64,000 nucleotides of DNA from Promethearchaeota archaeon (GTDB lineage: Archaea > Asgardarchaeota > Lokiarchaeia > Sigyniarchaeales > SOKP01), in assembly GCA_048938855.1 (NCBI GenBank), contig JBHLLT010000011.1:32001-96000 (forward strand), given 5' to 3'. The position numbers and the translations under genes were made by a program. Shown in pieces: positions 1-10,986 of this stretch. The stretch's first letter is position 1. Every line of letters starts with the position of its first letter. The notes under the pieces are model-generated. The model saw only the letters and a list, made by a program, of their open reading frames with translations, was not told the origin of the DNA and searched no databases.

Positions 1-954
1 CTGATAAGTACAGCAGTAATTAGAACAGGAATGTCAAAGCTACTTTTAGAGGCTCCAGATAAAAAGAGTGAAAAAAATTTAATTATATTAATCAATTCCT
101 GCTCCTCAATAGGGATATTACTTTCTTCATTTTTGTTTAAATTTTGTGTGAAAGAAATCGATTCTTTAGATTTTTGGAATGTTTTCTTTATAGTTGGATG
201 GTTAATAACTTCCCCCTTATTAGTCATATTCGTTTTTATGAGAAAGACCGCTCTAAGAGAACCATGTCAAGAATCTTTTAAAGAGACTTTTAAAGAACAA
301 GATCATTTGAAGTTTTTTTCAATTTTAATGATATCTCTTATATTTTTAGCATATTTTTTTTTATGGAGTGATAGATTAATAGCTTACCCTTTTAGTTCTT
401 ACGTTCTTTCCCGATTTGGAGAAGGAGGTTTTACATTATACTCAGATTTTTATGTAATTTTTACTCTTTTCAATATATTGGGTTTCTATATAGCAAAGAG
501 ACTGCTAAACAGAATAAATTTCAATGAAGATCCAACTATTAATCAGTATAAAAAATTTTTTCAGATTGTTATTTTTCTCACATTAATTTATGTGCTTAGT
601 TTAATATTACTGCTGTTTTCAGATATAATAATTCTATTAGCTACTTATTCTTTAATTTATCTCTTAGGCGGTCTGTTTGTGGTGCTATATACAACCATCT
701 TTCTCCAGATCTCTAGAACTGGAAAAAATGAGAATCTAAGGTATTGGATTATGTTACTATCATCTAATTTAGCGAGTATTACATTTTTACCTCTCGGCAC
801 ATTCCTTTCTCAATATATATCAATGGAGATCTTAATCACAATGGTTATTTCTTTAACTTCCGTATCGATTTTATTAATTTATTTGTCAAGGAAATCTATC
901 GGATGTGGGAATATATTGAAAAAAGAAATAGAAAGTAAATGTCAATCCCTATAG
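1..954 (+). CDS. MFS-type transporter (5'-truncated by window edge)
   Basis: Frame is open from base 1; many hydrophobic TM segments with a central hydrophilic loop, consistent with an MFS layout. Confidence 0.65.
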   Translation: MISTAVIRTGMSKLLLEAPDKKSEKNLIILINSCSSIGILLSSFLFKFCVKEIDSLDFWNVFFIVGWLITSPLLVIFVFMRKTALREPCQESFKETFKEQDHLKFFSILMISLIFLAYFFLWSDRLIAYPFSSYVLSRFGEGGFTLYSDFYVIFTLFNILGFYIAKRLLNRINFNEDPTINQYKKFFQIVIFLTLIYVLSLILLLFSDIIILLATYSLIYLLGGLFVVLYTTIFLQISRTGKNENLRYWIMLLSSNLASITFLPLGTFLSQYISMEILITMVISLTSVSILLIYLSRKSIGCGNILKKEIESKCQSL

Positions 955-1117
955 AACTTGTATAATGGGAAAGCTTTACAAAATAGGTTGTACTTCATAA
1001 CCGGGCATAATATTGTTATGTATTTAGTTATTTAAAATCAGATTAAAATTTTAAATATCAATATTAATAGCATTTTTAACAATTACCAAGGAAAAAGAGA
1101 AATAGAATGTAAATGTC
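924..1117. repeat. 20-bp direct repeat AGAAATAGAA(A/T)GTAAATGTC at 924-943 and 1098-1117
   Basis: 19/20 identity; each copy lies 3' of one micro-ORF on the minus strand. Confidence 0.8.
976..1008 (-). CDS. putative micro-ORF MPGYEVQPIL (10 aa)
   Basis: ATG at 1008, TAA at 978-976; TATA-like TTTTAAATA 21-29 nt upstream; similar to the 1142-1168 micro-ORF. Confidence 0.55.
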   Translation of the reverse strand: MPGYEVQPIL

Positions 1118-1134
1118 CAAAGGGACAATTACAT
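1092..1134 (-). terminator. hairpin plus T-rich tract downstream of the MPGWEGMP micro-ORF
   Basis: Minus strand ATGTAA-T-TGTCC CTTT GGACA-T-TTACAT followed by TCTATTTCTCTTTTT. Confidence 0.5.
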
Positions 1135-1141
1135 AATCATT

Positions 1142-1168
1142 TTATGGCATTCCTTCCCAGCCTGGCAT
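1142..1168 (-). CDS. putative micro-ORF MPGWEGMP (8 aa)
   Basis: ATG at 1168, TAA at 1144-1142; TATA-like TTTAAAAG 21-28 nt upstream; followed by a hairpin and T-tract. Confidence 0.55.
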   Translation of the reverse strand: MPGWEGMP

Positions 1169-1210
1169 AATAATATTCTTTAGATATTCTTTTAAACTAA
1201 ACGAAAAAAA

Positions 1211-4200
1211 TTAGTCTTTATCTTCTTTTAAAAGGGCTGGATAAAGCTTCTCAAACTTTTCTGTATATAATTTATAATTAATCCAGATTTTATCCTTTTC
1301 ATTCCATTTTAAATTGAATAATGGATTAAAAGAATTTAGAAAACTTAGGTCTTTATATATATTACTAAGAAGATTCTTTCCATTAGTTAAATCTGTTAAA
1401 ACAATGTAATTATTTATTTCAAAATATTCAAGCAATAAATCAAATAATTTTAAGAATTCATCAAGCTCACATTGAGGTAAATATAATATTATCATCAGTC
1501 CATTTTCAAATCTAATTTGTTCTGTTAAGCCATGAATATAATATTCTCCTTCTATCTCATAAATAAAGCCATAATTAAAGAAATTAAAAATTTTTATAAT
1601 AGTCTGATTTAATCCTTCTTTTACATCAGGTAAAATTAGAGAGATCTTATCTTGAAAGTTTAAATTTCTTAACTTAATATAGGGAAAAATTAAATTTTCT
1701 GCGACAAGTTTTTTAAAGTTATTAATAACTGAGTAGTTACGCGTAGCTAAGAATGATTTAATATCTATAGACCTCCAAGTGTATATTTCAGTTAATGCGT
1801 TGAAGTATGTAGACTTAAACCCAATATATTTCTCTTCAGGGGTTTTCATCATATTAAATTGCCTTAATTTAGCAAATTCTACTTTATAGTCCTGATTAAA
1901 AAGAATATTTTGCATATATATTTTGAATCGATTTGAATCATAATTCCAACCTGTAAAGCTTAGGTTATAATTAAAATTTAGAATTTGATATACTTTTTTG
2001 ATTGAAAATAGACAATACTCCTGTATAATATGTTTTGTCTTTGTATACCAGTTAAGATGTTTCATGTTGGGATTTCTAAATGGAAAGATATACTTAATTA
2101 AAAAAGAGCTAGTATCATCAATGGATGTTGGATATTTAATAGTTTGAAAAGTATTAATCAATAGGTGCTTAAAATCTACCTCATTTACATTTGAAGGGCG
2201 AATATATAAGTAATATTGATCTAACCCAAAAGCTTGAAAATTTGGAATAAATTTTATTGATTTTATAAAATTTTTAAAGAATTTTTCATTCTGAACGCTC
2301 CTGAAACTTTCTGGATCAAGAAGAATAGTAGTTAATTCTTTATTAAATTCAGATAATGACCTAAATCTTTTAATATTAAAATTTTTTTGTTCATATGAAA
2401 CACGCTTATTTACCTTGTTTACTAATTTAAGGATATTGTGTTCTTTTCCCCAAAAATGCTCTTGAGACGCACTCCTAATTACTTGGAGCGGTCTACTTAA
2501 TTCTCCTAATTGATTTTGAATAGATAGAAAACTCTGTTCAAATAAATCTTTGGTAAAAAAAAACTCATTTCTATCGAAGTCATAAAAATCTTTGACTAAT
2601 ACAAAGCCAATTAAACCGCTTGTGAAATACCTATTTAATTTGAGAAGATCTTCTTTGAAAATATTATATATAATCGAGCAAAATAGTTCTTTTTCCTTAA
2701 TATTTAAGAAATATGTAAATAGGATTATGTTATCTTCTTTACTAAATAAATTTTCTACTCTTTGAAAAATAACTCTTGGAAAGAATTTTAAAATCTTCTC
2801 AATTTTGTATATGACTTTTTGGGTGCATTTTAATATTAAGAGAGGGTGAAATTTTGCAAAAGAACTTACAATAATTGTCTTAATGAGTTCTGGTGAGATT
2901 AAATCTTTTTCAATAAATTTTTTGAGTATTGAATCTAGGATCTGGTTAGTAATTCTATAGGGCTTAAATTTGGCAAAAGATTGTGCAAGTTTTTTTTCTT
3001 TTGTCCTATATATTTTTTCGATCAATTTTTCATTTTTTAGAATCTGTTTCATCGATTCAATACTGAAGATTTTTAAATTCCTACATAAAGTAAATAATTC
3101 AAGGAAGTGGGAATATTTTTCTTTCAATATATAATATTTTTGAACTGAACTAAAATAAAGTGGTAGTATATCTCTAAATATGATTAATTGAATATCTTTA
3201 TTTTTAAAATTTGTATTAACTTCGATCAAATTAGAAATTTTGTGAGTTTTTAAGAATTCTTGGAGTCTGAACAAACTATTAATATCAGAATTCTGTGTAA
3301 TTAAGTTTTCAATTAAATTTAAGGACGTAATTATTTGTTGAAGCATATCTCCAATATAAAAAAAGCCATACATTCTATTTTTTTCCAAAAAGTTAATTAA
3401 ATCCTCCTTTAGTTCCCTAGAAGCATTTATAACATTAAGAGAAGCTTTTAGATCCGAAATTAAAACATTTTCACTTTCGATGTGGTTAAGTACTTCATCT
3501 TTGAGTGATTTAAGTGTTTCTTCCCTACGTTCGAATCCAAAACCAGTAAGACTTGTTTGTCTAACTCGCTCAAAAACAATCCAATCTAAAAGATCCAAAT
3601 TAATTGACTTTTGCGGTGCGTTATACTTTTTTGAGAATTCAAGTTCAAATTGATTGCTATATTCTTTATGGTTTGGATTTATGATTTTACGTAAATCGCT
3701 AAATTTGTTTCTGAAATAATTCAAATTTAAAAAATTTTTATACTCTTTCCAGATATAGCATTCTTTATTAATAGTATAACCAAAAATAAATAAATTTTCA
3801 ATCAATTTTAACAAATCAACAAGATAAATTCTGGGGATTACAAATAAACAATGAATTTCTTCAGAAAATCCTTTTTTCGCCAAAAATTTACTGTTTAAAA
3901 ATGGTATTTTGTCTAAGATTTTATAAATATCCTTTCGATTTAATATGGGATTAAATTTAAGAATTGAAATTACCACAGCGATGTCAATTTTATGGTAAAT
4001 TGGTTGAAAAGAGGGAGATATAATAGTATATTTATTAATCCAACGTAAATTCTCACTAAACTTTCTTTTACTTAAAGTAGTTGAAATTATTCCCTTTTCT
4101 TTAAAATCTTGAAAATAAGCTTCAAATTCGTTGTAATTTTTAAAAAGTTTCACATGATAGAAAATTTCTACAAGAATTCTTATAGTTTCTAAAATTTCGT

Positions 4201-4819
4201 CGTTATAAAGAGATTTTGAAATTTTATATATAAATTCTTCATAAAGAATGTCATAAAAATCATCCATCTTGTCATGAATTAAAGGGATGTTTCTGCGTAT
4301 AAACTCAAAAAAGAATTGTGTTGGACTTTGGGTGGTTTCTGTTGCTTCAAGTTTAAAAAATTTATCAAGTTTATCAAATTGAGATGATAAGAAGTTATAA
4401 TTAATAATTTTACTACGAACTAATTTTTTCCATTCATCTATTACCTCTAATTTAAAAAGATCACTTTCTATTATTTCATGAATGACAATTTGGATAACCT
4501 TATTCTCTCTTAACTCATATGGGATAAATACTAAGTAAGATTCCCTGAGCAAGATAAATTCTAAAAGCTTTAAATATTTTTCTGAGATTTTTATTTGATT
4601 TTGATTATTTATCAATGTTCTCCTTACACCAAGATTAAAAAAATCATCTGAATATTCTTTTTGATCTTTTGTAATTATGATTGACATATTTGGATTAATT
4701 GGAGCTAAATCAAGATAATTTTGAATTTCATTCAAAAGATTACTGAAGATTTGGTTTACGTCCTTTATTATAGTCTCCTTTGGTGTATTTATCAAAATAT
4801 CTAAATTTAGAGTATTCAT
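1211..4819 (-). CDS. large hypothetical protein with several Lrp/AsnC-like (wHTH+RAM-like) modules
   Basis: 1202-aa ORF; recurring segments such as IISPSFQPIYHKIDI, IKFIPNFQAFGLDQYYLYI and LVAENLIFPYI resemble the Lrp HTH-to-RAM linker. Confidence 0.55.
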   Translation of the reverse strand: MNTLNLDILINTPKETIIKDVNQIFSNLLNEIQNYLDLAPINPNMSIIITKDQKEYSDDFFNLGVRRTLINNQNQIKISEKYLKLLEFILLRESYLVFIPYELRENKVIQIVIHEIIESDLFKLEVIDEWKKLVRSKIINYNFLSSQFDKLDKFFKLEATETTQSPTQFFFEFIRRNIPLIHDKMDDFYDILYEEFIYKISKSLYNDEILETIRILVEIFYHVKLFKNYNEFEAYFQDFKEKGIISTTLSKRKFSENLRWINKYTIISPSFQPIYHKIDIAVVISILKFNPILNRKDIYKILDKIPFLNSKFLAKKGFSEEIHCLFVIPRIYLVDLLKLIENLFIFGYTINKECYIWKEYKNFLNLNYFRNKFSDLRKIINPNHKEYSNQFELEFSKKYNAPQKSINLDLLDWIVFERVRQTSLTGFGFERREETLKSLKDEVLNHIESENVLISDLKASLNVINASRELKEDLINFLEKNRMYGFFYIGDMLQQIITSLNLIENLITQNSDINSLFRLQEFLKTHKISNLIEVNTNFKNKDIQLIIFRDILPLYFSSVQKYYILKEKYSHFLELFTLCRNLKIFSIESMKQILKNEKLIEKIYRTKEKKLAQSFAKFKPYRITNQILDSILKKFIEKDLISPELIKTIIVSSFAKFHPLLILKCTQKVIYKIEKILKFFPRVIFQRVENLFSKEDNIILFTYFLNIKEKELFCSIIYNIFKEDLLKLNRYFTSGLIGFVLVKDFYDFDRNEFFFTKDLFEQSFLSIQNQLGELSRPLQVIRSASQEHFWGKEHNILKLVNKVNKRVSYEQKNFNIKRFRSLSEFNKELTTILLDPESFRSVQNEKFFKNFIKSIKFIPNFQAFGLDQYYLYIRPSNVNEVDFKHLLINTFQTIKYPTSIDDTSSFLIKYIFPFRNPNMKHLNWYTKTKHIIQEYCLFSIKKVYQILNFNYNLSFTGWNYDSNRFKIYMQNILFNQDYKVEFAKLRQFNMMKTPEEKYIGFKSTYFNALTEIYTWRSIDIKSFLATRNYSVINNFKKLVAENLIFPYIKLRNLNFQDKISLILPDVKEGLNQTIIKIFNFFNYGFIYEIEGEYYIHGLTEQIRFENGLMIILYLPQCELDEFLKLFDLLLEYFEINNYIVLTDLTNGKNLLSNIYKDLSFLNSFNPLFNLKWNEKDKIWINYKLYTEKFEKLYPALLKEDKD

Positions 4820-5142
4820 AAGAATCCTGTTATCTTTTACCCCTTCCTTTAGTGTTTAGGCTTAAAAAATCACTCAAATACAAATTATTTCTTTATCTTC
4901 GTTAAAATATTACCAATAATCTATTTAAAAGTTTAGCAAATTTAGAGGAATTTTTAACAATATCGTCTTAATACTTAATTTTCTAAATCAAATATTAATG
5001 TCGGGAGATAGTGAAGAAGTAGGTTTACTAAATTAATAAATTGTTAACATATTGTTTTTAATAAGTGAAATTCTTTAAATTAATTTAGGATTTATATTAA
5101 CTATAATAGAAAGATTTGGTTAATAAAAAGAGAGTATAGATA

Positions 5143-6292: not shown

Positions 6293-8683
6293 TCACTTCT
6301 TACTTTTGAATTTAGTATATAATGCTTTGTCAAGGAACTTACCGATTTTTACAGCAATTTGATTTCCGATTTCATAGCGTTCACCGTCAAGCAGATTCTT
6401 TTTCTGTTCAGGAGAAGGGGTAACTTTAAGTCGTTTTACTAAAGTTTTTTCGATAATTTCATTAACAATCTCTATGGACTTTTCATAATCTGGAAGTTTT
6501 ATTTCCGGTTCAAAACTTTTAATCTTCTCCATGGCAAAATTAAAAAATTCAGAAATTAGCTCAACAGGCTCTCCTTTCAATTCACTATGAAGTTTAATAT
6601 TATCTGTAGCTATTTTAGTGTCTTTCTCCTGCCAGTATAACTGATTTGGGTTAATACCGGGACTAGTTATCCTCATTAGTGAACTGGTGATTCTACGTTC
6701 AATCCAATTTAGAGTGCTTATTTCTTGTACTTCCCGAATTTTTTTAGCCTTCTCTTCTTTTATTTTCTCTTTTGTTTCGATTATTCGTTCTACCTCCGCT
6801 TTACGATTTGCCTCAGAATTTTCAAATCTTTTTATGATATCATATCCTATACAATATGAAATTGGAGAGATAATGTCGGATTTTAACTTTAAATTAACAA
6901 CATCTTGATATAATAAACTTGGATTATTTCTTAATTCTGACATCGCTTCTTTTAAAGAAGATTCGGTTATTCTTGCAAATATAAATCCATTGACTAGAAA
7001 CGGTTGATTGTTTGCATTAAGCACAGTGACAAGTTCTTCTTGTCTTTTATTTAATCTCTTAATAATCAATTCTTCAAGTTTAACTTTTATCCATTCCTCT
7101 GATTCAGTAGTCCCATCAATTTTTTTTATTGCTAATAGGTATAGAGATCTGTCATTAGACACTTTAGAATATACTTCTATTATTCTACTCAGTTGCCTCA
7201 GAATTTTTGATAAAATATAAAAGAAAATATCCTTTGTTATTCTATTAAGAATCTCTTCAAATTCTAAAACAAATAAGATATGAGAATAATTTTTAAGTTT
7301 TAACTCACCTAAAAAGACTTTATCAATCGCTTGCTTCTTTCTAATATACTGACGAAGATTATTAATATTAATCCTTGTTTTTTCTTCCAATACTCTTATT
7401 AATGCTTGATTTTTCGCGGAATCTTGATTTAAAATATTTAGTAAATCGAATTCAGAGATATCTTCAGCTAAATTTAAAAAATTTTTAACATCTTGAGAAT
7501 AACTTTCTGAAAGTGCTTTTTTCGCTAAGTATATTAAGTTTTGGTTAGGATCATTTAAAGATATAATATCCAACTTTTGTACATTGTACCTAACCATATT
7601 TCTTTTTACTTGAGCTGTAAGTTCTTCATCAACATTTATTAGATGCAGAATATTGAATACACCATATCTCTTTAGAGTATAAATTATCTCATCAAAACTA
7701 CATTCATTCATGCACTGTAAGAAGTAAATAAAATCATTTGGATGTTCCTTGAGCCTTCTAATTAATGCAAATTTTAAAAAACTCAAAATTTTATTTTCAA
7801 ACTGGTCATAATCGATTTTTTCTTCAAGAGCACTCTCCATTTTATAAATAAGATCTTTTTTTAGATCATTTGCTTCAATAAACACCTTCAAACCTGGTAT
7901 AGATATAGGAAATTTGTTAAAGTTGTAATCAATAATCTTTCTTTTTATCATTCTTACCGGCATTGCTTCAATTTGCAATTCCTTATATGATTTAAATTCA
8001 AAATCAGTACGTATTTTATCTATAAGACGCTTTAAAGTAGCTAATTCAATGAATTTATCTTCCTTTTCTTCCAATTTTAATCTTTTTTCTAATTCAACAG
8101 ATATGTCTTTAAAAGCCGCAGATTCTTCAAGAATTTCTCTTTTAACATCATTATTTAGCCCAATCATTTCCCCGATTAAATCATAAAAGTAAAATTGAGG
8201 ATAATTGATTATAATTTCTTGCAATTCTTGTTCAATATGGCTTTCAAGATCTTTTAACATATGCTCTTTATGAATTTCTTGAACTTCTTCTTTTCTTTCT
8301 TCGATCAAAAAAGAAAGAAATCTATTTTCTAATTCAATTATCTTGTTTAAAAGATTTATTTCTAATTTCAAGGAATCTTTTAATAGTGAATTGACTTCAT
8401 CAATTATAGTTTTCTTTTCAGTAATTTCTAAGTTTTTTGTTGAGTCAAAAGTGAAATTATCCCTATCCGTAAGTTTTTGAACTCGAATTCCTAAATTGTG
8501 GTAAATATGAATAGTGGCAGTTGCAATCAGTAAATCTTTAAAACTAGTTTTTTGACTAACAAGTTCAAAGATTTTATTTTTGTCTGCCTCTCTTTTAAAA
8601 TGTGAGATTATTAAATCAACCGTCTGAAAAAATCGGAAAGTACTCTCAATAGCAGTTGTTTTTCTTTTAACACCACTAATCAT
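6293..8683 (-). CDS. large helical hypothetical protein
   Basis: ~796-aa ORF; start placed at ATG 8683, which overlaps the upstream TGA (ATGA). Confidence 0.7.
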   Translation of the reverse strand: MISGVKRKTTAIESTFRFFQTVDLIISHFKREADKNKIFELVSQKTSFKDLLIATATIHIYHNLGIRVQKLTDRDNFTFDSTKNLEITEKKTIIDEVNSLLKDSLKLEINLLNKIIELENRFLSFLIEERKEEVQEIHKEHMLKDLESHIEQELQEIIINYPQFYFYDLIGEMIGLNNDVKREILEESAAFKDISVELEKRLKLEEKEDKFIELATLKRLIDKIRTDFEFKSYKELQIEAMPVRMIKRKIIDYNFNKFPISIPGLKVFIEANDLKKDLIYKMESALEEKIDYDQFENKILSFLKFALIRRLKEHPNDFIYFLQCMNECSFDEIIYTLKRYGVFNILHLINVDEELTAQVKRNMVRYNVQKLDIISLNDPNQNLIYLAKKALSESYSQDVKNFLNLAEDISEFDLLNILNQDSAKNQALIRVLEEKTRININNLRQYIRKKQAIDKVFLGELKLKNYSHILFVLEFEEILNRITKDIFFYILSKILRQLSRIIEVYSKVSNDRSLYLLAIKKIDGTTESEEWIKVKLEELIIKRLNKRQEELVTVLNANNQPFLVNGFIFARITESSLKEAMSELRNNPSLLYQDVVNLKLKSDIISPISYCIGYDIIKRFENSEANRKAEVERIIETKEKIKEEKAKKIREVQEISTLNWIERRITSSLMRITSPGINPNQLYWQEKDTKIATDNIKLHSELKGEPVELISEFFNFAMEKIKSFEPEIKLPDYEKSIEIVNEIIEKTLVKRLKVTPSPEQKKNLLDGERYEIGNQIAVKIGKFLDKALYTKFKSKK

Positions 8684-10986
8684 AATTCCTTCACCCATTC
8701 TCTATAAACTTCTTTAAAATTATCTGATAATTCAAATCGAGCATTATTATGCCAAAATTTAAAATCTAATACATGAAATAAATCTCCGTTAAATAAATCT
8801 CTCTCTTCATTCGTTAGAGTGTGTTTTAGAATAACAGTTAAAGGTCGTGGCACTAATTTTGAAAAATATTTGAGTTCTGTATTTTTTATATAATCATAAA
8901 ATGTTTCCTTGCCATCAAAGTTGAAGAAATTAAAAGGAATAAGATTTTCTTCTTGATGATTGAGATTATTCAACTCATTTTTAATACTATTTCTGACATA
9001 TTTAGGAAATTCAGTATTAATACCAATACTAGATTCATAATTTTTATAAAATTCAAACAATAGATTTTTTTCTTCAGGATTGGTTAACTTAGCGATATAT
9101 GTATCTAAAAATGTAAGGAAATTCTCGATATTTTGTTCGTTTCCTGCTCGCTCTTCAAAATACCCTATAAAATCATTGTATACTTCATCTAATGTCCAAA
9201 TTCTTTGCGCTTCTGGCCTTAAATATTTCTTAGAATAATCTATAATCCAATCTAAGACATAAAACTTCCATTCTAAGTTTATTCCTCCTATTCTTTTTTC
9301 TAGAAACCTATGAAATCTATTTGCAAAGCTGACAGGGTCACTTATTTCTTTATCAGGCTCATCTTTGATATAACGATTTATTGTAGAATATCTTAACACA
9401 TAACTTAATAGAAAATTTAATTCTGTTGAATATTTTTTAAACTTTTCAATATGATTTTTTATAATATTTATTTTAGATTCCATTTGAATCTCAGTAAATG
9501 ATATTAAATCTTCTATTTTTAATTCAATTTCATTAAAAAATACATCAATACTATTATCAACCAAAGATTTAAACTCTTGTATTAGTTCTCTTTCATTAAA
9601 TTTTATTTCTTTCTTAAAAAAAGATGGATGTGTTTCAATATGATTAAAGAGTAATAATTTAAATTTATCTACCAATTTTAATCCTATTATTTTAGCAGGT
9701 TTTTGTTCTTGGTTAAATTTTTCATAGGTTTTATCTGTTAATTTATTAGTTAAAGCTTTTAATCGACGATATGCAAGAAATTTCGGAAGTGATAATACAA
9801 CTATATTTTTTCCTTTATTAACCAACTCTGAGAAATAGCTTAAAACTGAATTTAATTCAATTATTCTCAGATTTTTTTTTTGGGTCATCGATTGATTTAT
9901 ATATTTTTTAGCCATTTCCCAGATTGGAGAGAAATCCACACTTTCTAATTTCCCTTTGTTTAATAGAAAATATTCAAATTTGTTTAATAATATATCAAGA
10001 TCCCCAATTTCGCCGGAACTAAGGAAGTTTTTAGAATACTCCAAAAATTTATTTATATAACTTTGTAGATCAATTAGTTTTGAATTTACAGTAGAAATTA
10101 ACCATTCCGCATTATGAGGATCATGATATTTTTTAATTTCTTGTGTGATGTAATCTACAATAAAAATAACGATCTCATCAAGAGATTCATCTATAGTCCC
10201 TGTATTTGCTAAATTGATAAGATTTGTTCCCAAATTTAAGGTTTTATCAACAATAAAATTCGCACTAGGCTCTGATATTGAGAATTTAAGATGTTCAATA
10301 GCTTGTTGGCCATCATAAGAGGTCTTGATTTTTTGGAATTTTGAATTTAACAAATTAATCTCCATAGGCTTTTTATACCATGAAATCTCAACATTAGAGA
10401 TAACTCTAGCATATGTATTCAGCATTTCTTGTTCTGTTGGTAGAGTTTTGCTTATTCCTATTAGTTTTTTATTCCATTTTTCTTCAACTATTTCACCATA
10501 AAGCTTTTGATTAAATCTCGAAGCAAATTTACGATATAACTGTTGTTTATTATGTTTATTTAATTCTGGACGATCTGAAAACTCTTCCACCTCAAAAAAA
10601 AGTCTACTTATATTGTTCAGTGATTCTCTTGATTTATGTATATTTAAAACGCCTGTTTCAGGTTTTAAAGCAAGTAACAAGCTTTCACAATCTTTATATT
10701 TACCAGGTATGAAAACCATTGATTGTGGATAAATATTAACTTGAGCACTCTTTTCATCAATGTTAAACAAATCAAATTCAATGCTGAAAACCTCTGCTCC
10801 GGAATAATCTCGTAATACTGCGTTATACATTGTTAAGTATTTTATAACCTCTTGGGAAAGCTCACTCACTTTTTCAGCTGTAAGTCGACCAGGTCCAATT
10901 ACATCTCCCACAATAACCTCATTTGGTGAGGAATAGCCAAATATTAAAGAATACTGATAATTAATAAATTCTCGCGTTGTTATCAT
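8680..10986 (-). CDS. large helical hypothetical protein
   Basis: 768-aa ORF, coupled to the next gene by an ATGA overlap. Confidence 0.7.
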   Translation of the reverse strand: MITTREFINYQYSLIFGYSSPNEVIVGDVIGPGRLTAEKVSELSQEVIKYLTMYNAVLRDYSGAEVFSIEFDLFNIDEKSAQVNIYPQSMVFIPGKYKDCESLLLALKPETGVLNIHKSRESLNNISRLFFEVEEFSDRPELNKHNKQQLYRKFASRFNQKLYGEIVEEKWNKKLIGISKTLPTEQEMLNTYARVISNVEISWYKKPMEINLLNSKFQKIKTSYDGQQAIEHLKFSISEPSANFIVDKTLNLGTNLINLANTGTIDESLDEIVIFIVDYITQEIKKYHDPHNAEWLISTVNSKLIDLQSYINKFLEYSKNFLSSGEIGDLDILLNKFEYFLLNKGKLESVDFSPIWEMAKKYINQSMTQKKNLRIIELNSVLSYFSELVNKGKNIVVLSLPKFLAYRRLKALTNKLTDKTYEKFNQEQKPAKIIGLKLVDKFKLLLFNHIETHPSFFKKEIKFNERELIQEFKSLVDNSIDVFFNEIELKIEDLISFTEIQMESKINIIKNHIEKFKKYSTELNFLLSYVLRYSTINRYIKDEPDKEISDPVSFANRFHRFLEKRIGGINLEWKFYVLDWIIDYSKKYLRPEAQRIWTLDEVYNDFIGYFEERAGNEQNIENFLTFLDTYIAKLTNPEEKNLLFEFYKNYESSIGINTEFPKYVRNSIKNELNNLNHQEENLIPFNFFNFDGKETFYDYIKNTELKYFSKLVPRPLTVILKHTLTNEERDLFNGDLFHVLDFKFWHNNARFELSDNFKEVYREWVKEL

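Follow-up and report, generated by a model that had tools for sequence, protein, structure and literature searches.

Ultrasmall peptide genes beside a giant Lrp-fold protein in Lokiarchaeia form what looks like a peptide signalling module

Gene-encoded peptide signals with a cytoplasmic receptor have been described from Bacillota and their phages. Very short Met-initiated precursors accompanied by an MFS transporter are found in RiPP clusters of the microcin C and cyanobactin types. In the RRNPPA receptor family, propeptides occur alongside leaderless 8-10-mers, and in the RopB-LCP and Rgg-SHP pairs an ultrasmall gene of 8-10 codons, devoid of a secretion signal, lies beside a cytoplasmic regulator, often divergently; the LCPs are highly hydrophobic (PMC10518010). 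Lrp/AsnC regulators (LrpA, FL11, Ss-LrpB) are oligomerising monomers of about 150 aa, with a winged helix-turn-helix (wHTH) followed by a ferredoxin-like RAM domain. Their ligands, all known ones being amino acids, bind in the RAM domains at the dimer-dimer interface, and their DNA sites are semi-palindromes of 13-17 bp, often in their own promoter (PMC2995911).

At the Lokiarchaeial locus described here, micro-genes of 8 and 10 codons lie beside the gene of a 1202-aa Lrp-fold protein, and the module looks like a peptide signalling system undescribed in archaea. Our literature search returned no description of this peptide/giant-protein family and no gene-encoded peptide signal with a cytoplasmic receptor in archaea. 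Like RopB-LCP, the module has an adjacent small ORF with translation signals, present as a propeptide or as a leaderless 8-10-mer, related receptors using long propeptides, strain-specific sequences and RiPP-type genes nearby. On the other hand, the candidate receptor fuses four Lrp/AsnC units to a dead peptidase domain, the peptides are polar and rich in Pro, Gly and Glu, unlike the hydrophobic LCPs, and the host is an Asgard archaeon. Since the model of the giant protein contains no TPR domain and the peptides are polar, we place the module outside RRNPPA and RopB-LCP, with a similar logic built from unrelated parts.

Both cassettes are on the minus strand of the window (the whole stretch of 64,000 nucleotides analysed). 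Peptide gene 1 (1168-1142) encodes 8 aa of the Met-Pro-Gly-x-Glu-Gly-x-Pro type and has a TATA box at 1196-1189 (-28 to -21 from the ATG), a 3' hairpin at 1107..1134 (z -4.0 against shuffles) and a pyrimidine/U-tract terminator at 1087..1106. Peptide gene 2 (1008-976) is a more divergent copy of 10 aa, with a TATA box at 1036-1029 (also -28 to -21), a weak 3' hairpin of the long-loop type at 933..981 (z -1.0) and a U-tract terminator at 919..932, which the 3' end of the MFS gene overlaps on the plus strand. The start context is AT-rich in both. As far as their sequence tells, both micro-ORFs are complete small transcription units, composed of TATA box, leaderless ATG, 8 or 10 codons, hairpin and U-tract; we infer the leaderless transcript from the position of the TATA box at -28, and in close-clade cassettes this box lies at -28 to -32. 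U-tracts are an archaeal termination signal, including for the Loki aCPSF1 (PMC8716108).

A 20-nt motif occurs in two copies (1117-1098 and 943-924, minus strand, 19/20 identical), each followed by a U-tract, and corresponds to the 3' arm of the hairpin, a stem whose loop varies in length, plus the first part of the U-tract. Allowing up to 2 mismatches, these are its only sites in the 3.95-Mb genome. Hairpin pairing was observed in 90.7% of cells, against at most 45% in slid controls, while covariation was limited to 2 compensated pairs, not above shuffles, with too little variation among the cassettes. The best Rfam hit on the cassettes reached 19.9 bits (gathering score 70), with no tRNA match either, and readings of the cassettes as SECIS-, Y-RNA- or snoRNA-like elements found no match and were dropped. 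The TATA boxes, starts, tiny ORFs, motif copies and T-runs reported by the first-pass annotation are all at their minus-strand positions; the spacing of 160 bp that it gave holds from ATG to ATG, but from motif to motif it is 174.

In peptide gene 2, a Val replaces the conserved Gly after the Glu; it may represent a second specificity or a decaying copy. The first cassette of G062/L185 likewise has a long hairpin loop. The two window cassettes are only 56% alike, copy 1 being nearest to L184 (77%) and L013 (74%), and copy 2 to the long-loop cassette of L185 (69%). Because both resemble cassettes of other genomes more than each other, they are old paralogues without recent duplication; 'duplicated' in the earlier description has to be read as an old paralogy.

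Searching with the motif turned up this cassette in four further genomes, each time downstream of the orthologous giant gene (matches in L006 and L010 lack the cassette anatomy and were discarded as chance). The orthologous cassettes retain the reading frame and the pattern Pro-Gly-x-(x)-Glu-Gly-x-Pro, and Met-Pro-Gly/Ala, Glu, Gly and Pro are kept in 14 close-clade cassettes. Pairwise differences among these 14 amount to 146, 200 and 298 at codon positions 1, 2 and 3, the opposite of a conservation that ignores codon position. The pN/pS is 0.195 over five core codons and 0.80 over two variable codons, although the core value is indicative since the core columns were picked as conserved and some rows are near-duplicates. 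The distance from ATG to Glu is 12 or 15 nt in 14/14 of these cassettes, whereas the last conserved Pro lies -1, 1, 3, 4 or 11 nt from the hairpin, without triplet steps. Two peptide positions diverge fast among close orthologues. Selection at the peptide level, previously suspected from synonymous codons, is supported by the third-position bias, the in-frame indels and the core pN/pS, and we conclude that the window ORFs are very probably functional peptide genes.

Two 38-codon genes adjoin the giant-gene homologue in L046. In both products the N-terminus is basic, a hydrophobic stretch and an Ala-x-Ala-type site are present, and the tail ends in Pro-Gly-Cys-x-Glu-x-x-Pro. Genomes of genera g2-g11 and g13, as well as of two other families, have 1-4 copies each of this long form of about 37 aa, with pN of 0.27 and pS of 0.72; it was not seen in the two large genera g1 (that of the source genome) and g12. 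A profile built on the 8 C-terminal residues alone of 24 long forms, allowing a single gap, was run over the 27,527 ATG-started ORFs of 8-14 codons in the source genome, where peptide gene 1 ranked 1st and peptide gene 2 ranked 2nd. Given these ranks, the window peptides correspond to the tail of the long form without its signal peptide and without its Cys. By this homology they are truncated forms of a signal-peptide-bearing family, which the first-pass annotation had overlooked.

Most long-form genes are scattered in the genome at a distance from the giant gene; in two other families, four genomes (78-91% complete) contain the long form with no giant gene found. Since it occurs apart from the giant gene, the long form may work with other partners or act as a small membrane protein. 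In L193-L205 (G015, G151-G153, G003, G020, G041) long-form genes are in unrelated contexts, sometimes as identical copies. In L182 (G034:C64:3708-3821) a TAA interrupts the N-terminal part of a long-form gene adjoining the giant gene; an intermediate in signal-peptide loss and a pseudogene are both possible. A Peptidase_S26 gene (signal peptidase I-like) lies upstream of the giant gene at L059:224-1243 and in L170, with a long-form peptide at one of the two loci.

The giant gene is found in 115/134 genomes of the family and hardly outside. Homologues of its product bear the labels Lokiarchaeota or Promethearchaeota, which makes the host a Loki-type Asgard archaeon. After curation, a peptide gene flanks 49/72 giant-gene copies (32 short forms, 15 long forms and 2 three-repeat, tandem-repeat precursors), and none is present in the examined flanks of the other 23; a relaxed search added three further short forms, leaving about 20 of the 72 without a peptide gene. 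The rule used to recognise short cassettes retrieved 42 micro-ORFs at 36 of the 72 genes, against 0-4 in shuffles, with a density of 0.67 per kb beside giant genes and 0.023 per kb in the intergenic DNA of the source genome. This rule was written after a first look at the loci and then applied to 9 new ones, 8 of which have a cassette, 5 being independent of the earlier loci, and the ninth has almost no downstream DNA. The short-form counts exclude L135 and L141, which look like chance, and L177 and L180, where the rule hit an ATG inside a long form. The micro-ORF cassettes sought beside homologues of the 1202-aa protein therefore recur across Lokiarchaeia.

The short cassettes are mostly upstream of and divergent to the giant gene, being downstream in the clade of the window. 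A start signal is present in 36 of 38 short cassettes (25 Shine-Dalgarno-like, 13 with a TATA box at leaderless distance, only 2 with both), and 29/38 have a hairpin with z < -1.5 (median z -2.6), the hairpin sequences being unrelated. Such promoter or SD-like sites and hairpins agree with the stand-alone expression of each cassette proposed before. In the receptor tree, short forms occur in a large clade and also nested among long-form carriers. Peptide types track this tree, a pattern that linkage alone would also give, and giant-gene paralogues within one genome, 38-49% identical, carry different peptides. We consider the giant protein to be probably the direct partner of the peptides. One clade (L157, L166, L168, L172, L173, L175, L153, L156 and L162) has no peptide gene in the examined flanks, most members having an MFS gene, and may answer to a peptide that is unlinked or foreign. 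At L008:6906-7196 and L185:6409-6687, a copy of the giant gene's C-terminus, 92-97 codons long, lies between two cassettes with identical peptides, as if part of the gene had been duplicated and gene conversion had then acted on the peptide frame.

The giant gene (1211..4819, minus strand) encodes the candidate peptide receptor-regulator, for which a structure model from 105 sequences reached pLDDT 90 and pTM 0.91 (a single-sequence fold, with pLDDT 31, was discarded). The model contains a gluzincin-like N-domain, four wHTH-RAM units and a helical insertion. At the sequence level no match was found in Pfam, NCBIfam or PDB. The best structural match is that of residues 207-769 (units 1 and 2) with NirDL (Z 13.6, rmsd 5.3, 299 aligned residues), unit 1 (about 205-370) matches AsnC, LrpC, PF0864 and NMB0573 (Z 6.4-7.1), and both halves match archaeal double-Lrp clusters bearing HTH_AsnC, with TM up to 0.74 over the match. 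According to the model, the giant protein is a single-chain Lrp tetramer. The multi-Lrp architecture proposed before is thus borne out by four modelled Lrp/AsnC units and by the AsnC/Lrp, NirDL and double-Lrp matches.

Each unit follows the order of Lrp/AsnC regulators, wHTH then RAM, each half has two Lrp units as NirDL does (PDB 4czc, 4ch7), and the four units would make a dimer of dimers, the assembly in which Lrp ligands bind. Unlike those oligomerising monomers, it is one chain of 1,200 aa, with an extra N-domain and a helical insertion of 190 aa, and its candidate ligand is a gene-encoded peptide instead of an amino acid (Lrp) or a tetrapyrrole (NirDL). This size is constant in the family, one 1,200-aa chain throughout, and among the 171 clusters retrieved with a profile of units 1 and 2, those listed are full-length family members or fragments.

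The N-domain (about 1-205) was modelled as gluzincin peptidase-like with Z of 6.7-6.9, a range where the match may reflect a common arrangement only. It shares with M1-type domains (PDB 3cia, 1z1w, 6mdx) the fold and the spacing of the Glu and the downstream Asn-Glu/Gln, but the His ligands of HExxH are lacking across the 105 sequences. That position reads Arg-Glu-x-Tyr-x, and the third ligand is Gln in 75 and Glu in 12 sequences. Because Arg takes the place of the first His in 93 of about 98 sequences and there is no second His, the domain has no zinc site. Family variability is 0.62 in RAM1, 0.64 in RAM2, 0.45 in RAM3, 0.41 in RAM4, about 0.5 in the HTHs and 0.64 in the N-domain. As RAM1 and RAM2 vary more than RAM3 and RAM4, units 1-2 or the N-domain would be the specificity site. 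In the window, the RAM1/RAM2 region (2600-3900) departs from an otherwise uniform clade at residues 309-314, 647-651, 686-687 and 738, possibly in connection with carrying two peptides. A complex prediction between the L164 giant protein (residues 1-790) and its 34-aa repeat precursor scored 0.01 and gave no answer either way, and an Atlas feature search returned nothing beyond a 0.80 lead.

The promoter region of the giant gene (4898..4936, minus strand) has a BRE/TATA-like box at 4936-4922 followed by a 19-nt imperfect palindrome at 4916-4898, a candidate, unproven operator. Box and palindrome are conserved in the close clade only, and no operator or dyad common to the whole giant-gene family was found.

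The reading frame of the MFS transporter, a candidate peptide exporter or importer of 446 aa, begins 387 nt before the left edge of the window, which holds its 3' part (1..954, plus strand). The gene is convergent with the cassettes and its last codons overlap the terminator of cassette 2 on the opposite strand. At 919-954 (plus strand) the frame runs about 17 codons beyond the region shared with its relatives, overlapping the hairpin and U-tract of cassette 2. This transporter family is single-copy in the source genome and is the commonest neighbour of the giant gene, found within 2.5 kb of 25/32 short-form, 2/15 long-form and 15/23 peptide-less giant genes. The association with short forms (p = 6e-5) is overstated by this value and is a lead, since it follows clades that are not independent. 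Other neighbours of the window locus are a Trm5-like gene and a PD-(D/E)XK nuclease-like gene, and related loci contain a B12 radical SAM (9 loci), a methyltransferase (4), a ThiF-like gene (4) or YcaO (2). At L164:6459-6599 (plus strand), and also in L165, a 46-codon precursor with three Cys-containing repeats and Arg-x-Arg/Gln spacers precedes a YcaO gene and resembles multi-core RiPP or alpha-factor-type precursors.

Could the cassettes act without a peptide, as small non-coding RNAs or DNA sites with an incidental frame? Their most conserved nucleotides are indeed in the non-coding hairpin and U-tract, but this is very improbable given the third-position bias, the in-frame indels, the lack of Rfam and tRNA matches and the homologous tail in a 37-aa coding family; moreover, distant cassettes retain the peptide character and start signals with a wholly changed hairpin sequence. 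A short ORF followed by hairpin and U-tract would also be expected of cis-acting leader peptides or attenuators of a downstream gene, to which we give hardly any probability. The window cassettes are no leader peptides because the next gene, the MFS, is convergent and no same-strand gene follows; in relatives, cassettes point away from the giant gene or flank both sides of it, and identical long-form copies are scattered through genomes. The gene order as read here largely refutes the attenuator.

The main rival to signalling is a RiPP-like product cassette with the logic of microcin C, in which the micro-ORF would encode a peptide that is modified into an antibiotic or metabolite, with the MFS exporting the product or conferring immunity and the giant protein serving as a maturation enzyme or scaffold. 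Several features are in line with it: radical SAM, methyltransferase, ThiF-like or YcaO genes in a minority of related loci, the repeated-core precursor with three Cys-containing repeats at the two YcaO loci, the MFS as commonest neighbour, and the best structural match being an enzyme, since NirDL and AhbAB are Lrp-fold enzymes and the giant protein itself could be a tailoring one. Nevertheless, we regard it as unlikely. Tailoring enzymes are patchy and of unrelated types, with none constant and none at the window locus; the one constant partner is an Lrp-fold protein, whose N-domain lacks the His metal ligands across the family alignment and whose winged HTH units are among its more conserved parts. 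The two readings can be combined, as modified peptide signals exist (ComX, AIP and the streptococcal radical-SAM peptides). It is rather improbable that the signal-less short form is an intracellular modulator only, which would stay in the producing cell as a fixed or timed switch, with the MFS merely a regulated target. The short forms have no export signal and are polar and acidic, unlike the hydrophobic LCPs, 7/32 lack an MFS within 2.5 kb, which 15 peptide-less genes do have, but the fast divergence at two peptide positions fits kin-specific codes better and the MFS is rare next to signal-bearing forms. Signalling has its own difficulties, namely the giant genes with no peptide gene detected in the examined flanks (about 20/72), the MFS beside 15/23 of those where no peptide was detected, the failure to find a family-shared operator, and the fact that known Lrp ligands are all amino acids and the best match, NirDL, is an enzyme.

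On balance we lean towards signalling, with the peptide as ligand of a DNA-acting giant Lrp-fold receptor-regulator and the MFS moving the signal-less form. The leaderless mRNA would be translated into an 8-10-aa peptide, probably losing its Met before Pro, which would cross the membrane through the MFS, replacing the Sec route of the long form. The peptide would then bind the giant protein, the variable RAM1/RAM2 pair and the dead peptidase cleft being the likeliest sites, and alter DNA binding by the four winged HTHs, with control of its own locus and the neighbouring genes. The conserved Pro, Gly and Glu may be a shared anchor and the variable positions a strain-specific code, the two peptides of the source genome being two specificities, or an agonist and a divergent copy. 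More tentatively, we suggest as a possible scenario a kin-specific cell-to-cell signalling, where the intracellular receptor is the single-chain Lrp tetramer and its pseudo-peptidase domain, and where the signal would have repeatedly switched between Sec propeptide, tandem repeat and MFS-moved leaderless 8-12-mer.

If true, an Asgard system built on an Lrp-fold receptor would broaden peptide signalling as well as the range of Lrp ligands, in relatives of eukaryotes. It can be tested without cultures, using dozens of natural cognate pairs, purchasable peptides and a well-modelled soluble protein. The cassettes exemplify a class of 8-12-codon genes overlooked by annotation, and the window adds the homology that links short to long forms, a leaderless variant located downstream, a bias of the MFS to signal-less forms and a genome in which a single giant gene has two different peptides.

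Further along the window, at 6293-10986 (minus strand), there are two long adjacent ORFs of 801 and 768 aa with no Pfam match. In 19 related loci (L126-L152), the gene immediately after the giant one, in the same orientation, is acyl-CoA synthetase-like, with a CoA-binding and a succinyl-CoA-ligase-like domain, and is a candidate target or peptide-acylating enzyme.
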